Source of the DNA: Escherichia coli
Lineage (GTDB): Bacteria; Pseudomonadota; Gammaproteobacteria; Enterobacterales; Enterobacteriaceae
Direction: 5' to 3' (one strand)
DNA length: 64,000 nucleotides
NCBI RefSeq assembly: GCF_003334405.1
Contig: NZ_QOWM01000005.1
Under the pieces are notes generated by a model, which did not search any database, was not told the origin of the DNA, and saw only the letters and a list, made by a program, of their open reading frames with translations. Shown here piece after piece: positions 27,133 through 43,108 of the stretch. How positions within the stretch are numbered: position 1 is the stretch's first letter; every line of letters begins with the position of its first letter. Made by a program: the position numbers and the translations under genes.

Positions 27133-27228
<96 letters not shown>

Positions 27229-27264
27229 TTGGGTGGTCTGTGCTTTGCAGCACTTTTCAAATTT

Positions 27265-27340
<76 letters not shown>

Positions 27341-27376
27341 TTGGGTGGTCTGTGCTTTGCAGCACTTTTCAAATTT

Positions 27377-27452
<76 letters not shown>

Positions 27453-42090: not shown

Positions 42091-42624
42091 ATGCGCCTGC
42101 TCCCTCTCGTTGCCGCAGCGACAGCTGCATTTCTGGTCGTTGCCTGCAGTTCTCCTACGCCGCCGCGTGGCGTGACCGTAGTAAATAATTTCGACGCCAA
42201 ACGTTATCTCGGTACCTGGTATGAGATTGCCCGTTTTGATCACCGCTTTGAACGTGGACTGGAAAAAGTCACCGCAACATACAGCCTGCGTGATGACGGC
42301 GGCCTGAATGTCATTAATAAAGGCTATAACCCTGACAGAGGAATGTGGCAGCAGAGTGAAGGGAAAGCGTACTTTACCGGCGCACCAACTCGCGCTGCGC
42401 TGAAAGTGTCATTCTTTGGTCCTTTCTATGGCGGTTATAACGTTATTGCACTCGATCGGGAATACCGCCATGCGCTGGTTTGCGGCCCGGACCGCGACTA
42501 CCTGTGGATACTCTCCCGCACGCCAACCATTTCTGACGAAGTGAAACAGGAGATGCTGGCAGTCGCGACCCGGGAAGGGTTTGATGTCAGTAAATTTATT
42601 TGGGTACAGCAGCCTGGTAGTTAG
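42091..42624 (+). CDS. blc: outer-membrane lipocalin Blc
   Basis: 177-aa ORF with signal peptide plus lipobox (VVACSS) and lipocalin fold motifs. Confidence 0.93.
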
Positions 42625-42938
42625 TGAGTGCTGAGTTTCAGACCAATAATCCCCAATACGATTAACGCCAGACTCGCCAGGCGCATCGGGTTAGCGGACT
42701 CACCGAGCAGCACAATGCCGGTTATGGCCGCGCCGACTGCGCCAATACCCGTCCACACGGCATAAGCCGTCCCTACTGGTAACGATTTCATCGCCCAGGC
42801 AAGTAGCGCCATACTGACAATCATCGCCGTCACAGTAATAACACTCGGCGTCAAACGACTAAAGCCGTGGGTATATTTCAGGCCAACGGCCCATACCACT
42901 TCCAGCAGACCAGCAATAACTAAGATAATCCAGGACAT
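42621..42938 (-). CDS. gdx: SMR-family guanidinium exporter Gdx (SugE)
   Basis: ORF 42621..43088 trimmed to [26 protein letters not shown]... (105 aa, 4 TM helices). Confidence 0.93.
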
Positions 42939-42956
42939 ATCAGGCTCCGGAGAATT

Positions 42957-42999
42957 GGGGCCGTCCCCGGTGAAAAGAGGCGTTTGCAGGTCGTCCTGC
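42957..42999 (-). ncRNA. guanidine-II (mini-ykkC) riboswitch in the gdx 5' UTR
   Basis: minus-strand transcript contains two short hairpins with ACGR loops: GCAGG-ACGA-CCUGC and GGGG-ACGG-CCCC, about 15 nt apart, ending about 18 nt before the gdx AUG and next to its GGAG Shine-Dalgarno. Confidence 0.8.
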
Positions 43000-43069
43000 A
43001 AAGCTGATGGTTGAACGGATATTTTGCCAGGTGGCAGGGGAATTTCAACTATTACCTTTGTGACTATCG

Positions 43070-43108
43070 CAGAAAAAACAAACGGCACGACACAGCTGTC
43101 GTACCGTT
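43070..43108 (-). terminator. rho-independent terminator downstream of ecnB
   Basis: minus-strand hairpin ACGGUACGACAGCUGUGUCGUGCCGU followed by UUGUUUUUUC. Confidence 0.65.

Follow-up and report, generated by a model that had tools for sequence, protein, structure and literature searches.

The guanidine-II riboswitch in the sugE/gdx leader of Escherichia coli: comparative support, natural variants, and a possible OFF state involving the second hairpin

Genomic setting of sugE/gdx

The window, that is, the whole stretch of 64,000 nucleotides (64 kb) analyzed here, was 100% identical to E. coli K-12 strains (MG1655, C600, and J53), and none of the 5426 complete E. coli genomes searched lacked the region. 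The annotated neighbourhood was frdCD-ampC-blc-sugE-ecnB-ecnA-efp-epmB. The NCBIfam equivalog model NF008512 matched the sugE product with 193.5 bits (cutoff 126) in an alignment over positions 1–104 of 104 from the ATG at 42938, and the scores of the EmrE/Qac drug-exporter SMR models were far under their cutoffs. The SMR exporter gene that an earlier note on this DNA had placed directly downstream of the leader was identified in this way, together with the RefSeq annotation, as SugE/Gdx. Passages of two reports describe Gdx as an SMR-family guanidinium/2H+ antiporter (PMC12186494, PMC13064478). The gene and the signals at the 5' side of its leader were as follows:

42938..42621, minus strand: sugE/gdx coding sequence, 105 aa (NCBIfam NF008512, RefSeq WP_000118482.1)
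43108..43081, minus strand: ecnB intrinsic terminator, a 12-bp stem followed by UGUUUUUU (terminator scan and ecnB annotation)
43048..43021, minus strand: candidate promoter, TTGAAA, a 16-nt spacer, and a TG-extended CAAAAT (consensus scan)

The ecnB terminator separates the sugE transcript from ecnB. The site at 43048..43021 was the single promoter candidate between this terminator and the first leader hairpin (P1); the consensus scan, which gave 1 site against 1.1 expected in shuffles, is weak by itself. Judged from its position, the candidate promoter would start transcription near 43014, approximately 12 nt 5' of P1. At the other end of the gene, blc (plus strand) and sugE (minus strand) are convergent with overlapping stop codons (42621..42624), leaving no space for a terminator between them. 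The program-made list of open reading frames gave sugE a longer in-frame version of 155 aa that begins with a GTG at 43088 and runs through the leader element described below; the true start of sugE is the ATG at 42938 rather than this GTG.

Two-hairpin element in the sugE/gdx leader

The leader contained two small hairpins, each capped by an ACGR tetraloop (ACGA at 42994..42991 and ACGG at 42964..42961), with the following components:

43002..42983, minus strand: P1 hairpin, UUUGCAGG-ACGA-CCUGCAAA, 8-bp stem with ACGA tetraloop (sequence and Rfam alignment)
42982..42969, minus strand: linker, CGCCUCUUUUCACC, 14 nt, pyrimidine-rich; published as a putative anti-SD (PMC9300104, PMC9094411)
42968..42957, minus strand: P2 hairpin, GGGG-ACGG-CCCC, 4-bp stem with ACGG tetraloop (sequence and Rfam alignment)
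42956..42949, minus strand: spacer between P2 and the Shine-Dalgarno sequence (SD), AAUUCUCC (alignments)
42948..42945, minus strand: SD, GGAG, 6 nt 5' of the AUG; labelled as SD in PMC13064478 Fig. 1
42944..42930, minus strand: predicted partners of the P2 5' strand, namely CC 42944..42943, the G of the AUG, UCCU (42936..42932), and G42930 (from MFE folds)

The P1 ACGA loop is the first guanidinium-binding loop, and P2 is the second, weaker guanidinium site. By folding, P1 becomes a 10-bp stem with a one-base bulge if GC at 43004..43003 pairs with GC at 42981..42980. The GGAG is followed by CCUGAU and then by the AUG at 42938 on the minus strand. The span 42957..42999 given in the earlier note was exact, opening at the first base of GCAGG and closing at the final C of P2, and its two minus-strand ACGR hairpins were borne out by the sequence and by the Rfam model. 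The P1 stem that it had drawn as 5-bp GCAGG-ACGA-CCUGC proved to be a real hairpin but a longer one, of 8 bp, so that the separation that it had put at about 15 nt is exactly 14 nt with full stems or 17 nt with the 5-bp version. It had also placed the 3' hairpin immediately upstream of the SD; the order is correct, but 8 nt lie between P2 and GGAG.

In an Rfam 15 scan of the window, Guanidine-II (RF01068, mini-ykkC) matched 42956..43002 on the minus strand over model positions 1–48 of 48 with 50.4 bits (E = 5.2e-7), 18 bits over the gathering threshold of 32. The covariance-model scan that the earlier note had put forward as a check was therefore positive. The only other matches in the whole window were four tRNAs: three identical tandem genes at 27156..27452 (minus strand) with 112-nt spacing and the anticodon loop GCC (tRNA-Gly), and a single gene at 57187..57259 (plus strand) with a GAA anticodon loop (tRNA-Phe). 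The motif GGACGRCC-N10-30-GGACGRCC had one match in the 64-kb window and was found in 0 of 100 dinucleotide-preserving shuffles.

The class is marked by 16 conserved nucleotides, including two G-C pairs that close each tetraloop (PMC5558903). Both of these pairs were present in each hairpin (GGACGACC and GGACGGCC), in columns that were invariant in the nine leaders compared below. The inter-hairpin linker of 14 nt (42982..42969) lay within the family range of 7–40 nt (PMC5558903), and the 8 nt from the end of P2 to GGAG, with a SugE equivalog downstream, correspond to the placement expected of a 5' leader element. We identify the element, with a probability of roughly 0.95–0.97, as the guanidine-II riboswitch that switches on translation of the E. 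coli K-12 sugE/gdx mRNA. The guanidine-II architecture proposed in the earlier note was thus upheld by the RF01068 match, by compensatory P1 changes in orthologues, and by the literature on the same sugE leader. That note was right on identity and did not mention that the element is a textbook example.

Published work on the same RNA and related classes

The element is already known, has been structurally characterized, and is a reference example of its riboswitch class; E. coli is listed among guanidine-II organisms in reviews (PMC12186494). [quoted passage not shown] Schamber et al. applied NMR and SAXS to a 49-nt guanidine-II aptamer from E. coli SugE, both whole and as separate P1 and P2 halves, and found that Gdm+ binds, more tightly at the P1 ACGA loop, and that two new G-C pairs appear, which they attributed to a kissing interaction (PMC9300104). 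Their aptamer consists of a P1 part of 23 nt including two added Gs, the native 13-nt linker, and a 13-nt P2 part; in this isolated 49-nt construct, which does not contain the SD region, P2 imino signals were seen by NMR without ligand (PMC9300104). Fuks et al. examined a 47-mer by smFRET and simulation and described an intramolecular kissing state; in the coarse-grained simulations P2 unfolded while P1 remained folded (PMC9094411). The published Gdn23 construct of PDB 5NDI is the P1 hairpin (PMC9300104, PMC9094411, PMC12117010). According to PMC9094411, this PDB entry is a crystal structure in which P1 of E. coli SugE forms a homodimer; a chemical-shift assignment of P1 has also been published (PMC12117010). 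Ligand binding and loop kissing of this RNA are taken from that literature (PMC9300104, PMC9094411), and the hairpins, family membership, gene context, and conservation are observations of the present analysis.

The published in vitro aptamers end 5' of the SD, and the linker is called only a "putative" anti-SD (PMC9300104, PMC9094411). The window copy differs from these E. coli constructs in that it is the native genomic element with its expression platform. The literature searched contained no direct reporter assay for the E. coli sugE leader. Indirect support for guanidine-dependent gdx expression in vivo comes from the caesium-resistant E. coli strain ZX-1 of Kojima and Ito, which carries a 20-bp deletion from 30 to 11 bp upstream of gdx (PMC13064478). 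In ZX-1 gdx is constitutive and gdx mRNA was raised by RNA-seq, and added Gdm+ enhances gdx-dependent Cs+ resistance (PMC13064478). The deletion string is the reverse complement of CCGGGGACGGCCCCAATTCT and mapped exactly to 42970..42951; owing to a flanking CC repeat, the product is the same as that of deleting 42968..42949, that is, all of P2 and the spacer. The linker is retained in ZX-1 while P2 and the spacer are lost.

The guanidine-II element of Pseudomonas aeruginosa (Reiss and Strobel 2017, PMC5558903) resembles that of E. coli in having two ACGR hairpins ahead of a SugE-type gene and in turning translation on through loop-loop dimerization. The anti-SD proposed for P. aeruginosa consists of part of the linker and the 5' end of P1 (PMC5558903); in E. 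coli, by contrast, pairing of this type is weak and fold prediction favours P2. Guanidine-III (ykkC-III, RF01763) has the same ligand, the same kind of gene, and predicted translational control, but differs in its unrelated pseudoknot fold with one ligand and in also controlling RNase E access, for which documentation is cited in PMC9094411 and PMC12186494. Guanidine-I (ykkC, RF00442) shares the ligand and an overlapping regulon (Gdx exporters and guanidine carboxylase), but has an aptamer of approximately 100 nt and is a transcriptional ON switch acting by anti-termination (PMC5558903).

Against this background, the finding in the sugE/gdx leader adds nothing new, and its value is an annotation point. 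The RefSeq rows carry no leader feature, and therefore annotation limited to genes overlooks the element that controls gdx, as the earlier note had said of ORF-based annotation.

Comparison with leaders of other organisms

RF01068 was found upstream of gdx in a Citrobacter-derived blaCMY-2/blc/sugE plasmid cassette (47.2 bits), Citrobacter werkmanii (47.2 bits), Klebsiella pneumoniae (43.4 bits), Proteus mirabilis (39.7 bits), Pseudomonas sp. (45.1 bits), and Desulfoplanes (45.8 bits), and the family model also matched in Thiomicrorhabdus (37.6) and Afipia (37.4). The gdx leader of Paraburkholderia hospita had a canonical P1 and P2, yet scored 27.1 against the gathering threshold of 32. In this megaplasmid element (L127:511-578) the linker is 36 nt long and contains a 7-bp hairpin of its own, and the Rfam model mis-aligns it; because of this extra hairpin in the linker the score falls below the threshold, which is likely a false negative of the Rfam model.

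A comparative set of nine leaders from nine genera, five of them Enterobacterales, was placed in a gap-free alignment of the hairpins, in which 95.4% of the cells fell in standard pairs. Changes on both sides of a pair (compensatory changes) occurred in 7 of the 12 pairs, with P1 accounting for six (of its 8 pairs) and P2 for one (of its 4). None of 500 shuffles reached the observed covariation score, in a set of which four of the nine leaders had been pre-filtered for at least two extra P1 pairs, and the paired share fell to 34–56% when the registers were slid. P2 (GGGG/CCCC) is nearly invariant, and its support in these sequences is conservation, not covariation. The SD GGAG was invariant across all aligned leaders, and the spacer AAUUCUCC (42956..42949) differed between genera, with no conservation in the leader alignments.

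Eight Gdx homologues were picked by protein match alone, and for the six of these with less than 60% identity there was no guanidine-II element within 600 nt upstream. In these sequences guanidine-II accompanies gdx in close orthologues but not in SMR homologues generally. On the Deinococcus sp. plasmid NZ_CP092189 (L005:1412-1485), a guanidine-III element (RF01763, 47.8 bits) and no guanidine-II precedes a sugE homologue. In Pseudomonas sp. BN411 (L104:10130-10229), the segment GUCGUCC between P2 and the SD is the exact complement of the P1 core GGACGAC; this complementarity suggests a further OFF-state arrangement in which a downstream segment may sequester the P1 loop. A plasmid DNA search returned almost one allele alone, that of the Citrobacter-derived blaCMY-2/blc/sugE cassette, with little diversity.

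Within E. coli, the 93-nt leader was identical in 3146 records and had 1–4 differences in 2270. No variation was seen in P1, P2, the SD, the bases between SD and AUG, or the first codons of the sampled full-length chromosomal alleles. Substitutions in the sampled leaders occurred only at 42979 (C/G/U, in the linker), 42952 (C/U, in the P2-SD spacer), and 43005 (A/U, just 5' of P1 on the minus strand). At 42979, G was the majority base among the sampled alleles and the K-12 base was in the minority.

A chance resemblance, that is, two hairpins without function, is barely conceivable here. What speaks for it is that the bare core motif is common in high-GC genomes. When species-representative genomes were scanned with GGACGRCC-N8-38-GGACGRCC, at least 120 loci were returned; the matches listed were mostly chance occurrences in high-GC actinobacterial genomes, up to a dozen per genome, and a stem filter kept only 14 of the 127 listed, of which 6 were accepted by Rfam. 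Motif-only searches for guanidine-II are unreliable outside moderate-GC genomes. For the window copy, however, the motif did not arise in any of the 100 window shuffles, the covariance-model score was 18 bits over gathering, P1 covaries, the sampled full-length chromosomal E. coli alleles show no change in P1, P2, or the SD, and there are direct biophysical data on the same RNA (PMC9300104). Together with the covariation and the published binding data, the shuffles led us to reject a chance origin.

Mode of control and possible OFF states

Descriptions of the class agree on translational control (PMC5558903, PMC12186494), and an ON switch at this level, in which guanidinium binding and loop kissing would free the ribosome-binding site, is the most likely mode of control. 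The general mechanism rests on class knowledge (PMC5558903, PMC12186494) combined with work on this particular RNA (PMC9300104, PMC9094411): the P1 ACGA and P2 ACGG loops each bind one guanidinium ion, and the bound loops pair through their C-G residues to form a P1-P2 kissing complex. The kissing complex would keep P2 closed and leave GGAG and the AUG free for the 30S subunit, so that the Gdx exporter would be translated when guanidinium accumulates and otherwise not.

For the OFF state, folding suggested that the weak 4-bp P2 may open in the absence of ligand. Its 3' strand CCCC would then pair with GGAG; its 5' strand GGGGACGG would bind G-UCCU, which spans the start codon, as well as the CC behind the SD. 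The second aptamer hairpin would itself be the expression platform, and enterobacterial gdx leaders would have no separate anti-SD. We put forward this P2 opening tentatively, at somewhat less than even odds. In the unconstrained MFE structure of the leader P1 was kept and P2 was opened onto the SD and start region, a pairing calculated at -12.4 kcal/mol: C42957, C42958, and C42960 paired with the Gs of GGAG, G42962-G42961 with C42943-C42944, and GGGAC (42967..42963) with G-UCCU (42936..42932). P2 opening with SD/start pairing was the MFE structure in 5 of 5 Enterobacterales leaders, where the duplex of P2 with the translation initiation region (TIR) was calculated at -11.7 to -13.1 kcal/mol, that of the linker with the TIR at -3.5 to -6.5 kcal/mol, and the P2 hairpin at -5.4 to -5.6 kcal/mol. 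The SD of Proteus is GGGG, which pairs fully with CCCC, and its Ser-2 codon UCU keeps a G-U pair; among the six Ser codons, UCC at Ser-2 gave the strongest P2:TIR duplex. GGAGCCU and AUGUCCUGG were invariant across E. coli, Citrobacter, and Klebsiella. The polymorphic positions 43005, 42979, and 42952 were all unpaired in the P2-open fold, and whichever of the six allele combinations at 42979 and 42952 was folded, the MFE was -24.5 kcal/mol. In ZX-1, the predicted sequestration of the initiation region fell from -14.2 to -4.0 kcal/mol. P2 opening also agrees with the constitutive expression of this mutant in spite of its retained linker (PMC13064478) and with the unfolding of P2 in the coarse-grained simulations (PMC9094411). 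The unpaired probability of the SD in the partition function hardly differed (0.46 in the wild type and 0.49 in ZX-1); in these models the useful predictor is helix stability, not the unpaired probability of the SD.

Our confidence in P2 opening is held at this level because the P2:TIR pairing was not significant beyond chance, ranking 4 of 39 among the SD-ATG contexts in the window (approximately p = 0.1); because 26% of random SD-AUG spacers matched the strength of the P2:TIR duplex; and because the P2-open fold was only about 1.5 kcal/mol better than a fold with P1, P2, and a local SD hairpin, an advantage that vanished when 45 nt of coding sequence were added and the MFE structure left P2 closed. 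The CCCC strand pairs with any SD, and the P2:TIR pairing is partly generic. In addition, the pairing was absent by folding from the leader of Desulfoplanes, and the P2:TIR residues were invariant in the Enterobacterales set, which gives no covariation. The P2 imino signals of the ligand-free 49-nt aptamer likewise speak against P2 opening, although the SD region is missing from that RNA (PMC9300104).

In the published OFF state, the linker (CUCU/UCUUUU) acts as an anti-SD on GGAG while P1 and P2 are folded, and kissing frees the SD. This model has been drawn for the E. coli RNA (PMC9300104, PMC9094411) and for P. aeruginosa (PMC5558903), although the papers call the linker element "putative" and none of them probed an SD-containing construct. 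The linkers of all enterobacterial leaders are pyrimidine-rich, the Citrobacter leaders folded with linker:SD pairing when P1 and P2 were enforced, and in the O157 allele (U at 42979) the linker:TIR duplex reached -6.7 kcal/mol. In K-12 and in the common G allele, however, this duplex was calculated at only -3.5 kcal/mol, the weakest of the 39 GGAG-ATG contexts in the window, and 42979, the sole polymorphic position of the linker, lies inside the proposed anti-SD, where it shifts the duplex from -3.5 to -6.7 kcal/mol. ZX-1 is constitutive despite having the whole linker (PMC13064478). On this evidence we regard the linker as an unlikely anti-SD in E. coli. A smaller chance still is given to a local hairpin between UCUCCGG (spacer and first SD Gs) and CCUGGA (codons 2–4) that would mask the SD, with P2 only modulating it. 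Such a hairpin, of about -5.6 kcal/mol, formed in the E. coli fold when P1 and P2 were enforced, and most of its 5' arm is lost in ZX-1, but a weakened helix (-4.0) persists in that constitutive strain; moreover, the spacer is unconserved, and Klebsiella has GCAAA there, which makes the helix impossible.

Control at the level of transcription or mRNA stability, through P1 and the U-rich linker as an attenuator or through a ligand that shields the mRNA from RNase E, is highly improbable. A terminator scan did flag P1 with CGCCUCUUUU, P1 of Proteus is directly followed by UUUUU, RNase E control is on record for guanidine-III as noted above, and gdx mRNA was raised in ZX-1 (PMC13064478). The U-run of E. 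coli, however, is interrupted and begins 6 nt past the stem, the class is described as translational, and raised mRNA is an expected secondary effect of translation. P1 as an intrinsic terminator was rejected, since ligand would stabilize it and produce an OFF switch, contrary to the induction by Gdm+.

Simple folding favours an OFF state unlike that in the published cartoon. If P2 opening is true, it would revise the linker anti-SD cartoon of the best-studied guanidine-II riboswitch and account for constitutive expression after loss of P2, as in ZX-1 and the natural EC488 allele described below; it also predicts that plasmid copies with a truncated P1 are locked off.

Natural deletion and plasmid copies

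The chromosome of E. coli EC488, a clinical urine isolate (NZ_CP109874, L134), carried a natural 16-nt deletion, CACCGGGGACGGCCCC, corresponding to 42972..42957 of the window, which takes away P2 completely together with the last bases of the linker. It resembles the laboratory deletion of ZX-1 that renders gdx constitutive. The predicted sequestration of the initiation region in EC488 fell from -14.2 to -5.6 kcal/mol.

In some blaCMY-2/blc/sugE plasmids, the cassette junction lies inside the riboswitch, and unrelated sequence takes the place of the P1 5' arm and the ACGA loop. One example is the Salmonella Heidelberg IncI1 blaCMY-2 plasmid NZ_CP012923 (L003:1480-1560), and there were two further plasmid matches. 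These copies keep the P1 3' arm, the linker, P2, the SD, and sugE, and Rfam did not detect guanidine-II in them. Judging from the missing loop, a kissing complex should be impossible. The natural and plasmid copies with P2 deleted or P1 truncated would be ready-made tests of the mechanism, and they may alter the biocide and guanidine tolerance of strains with blaCMY-2 plasmids. An orphan leader of the Citrobacter type, with P1, the linker, and the 5' half of P2, was present on the E. coli AR_0085 plasmid NZ_CP029743 (L140:1478-1560), where it is cut inside P2 beside an IS66 transposase with no sugE after it.
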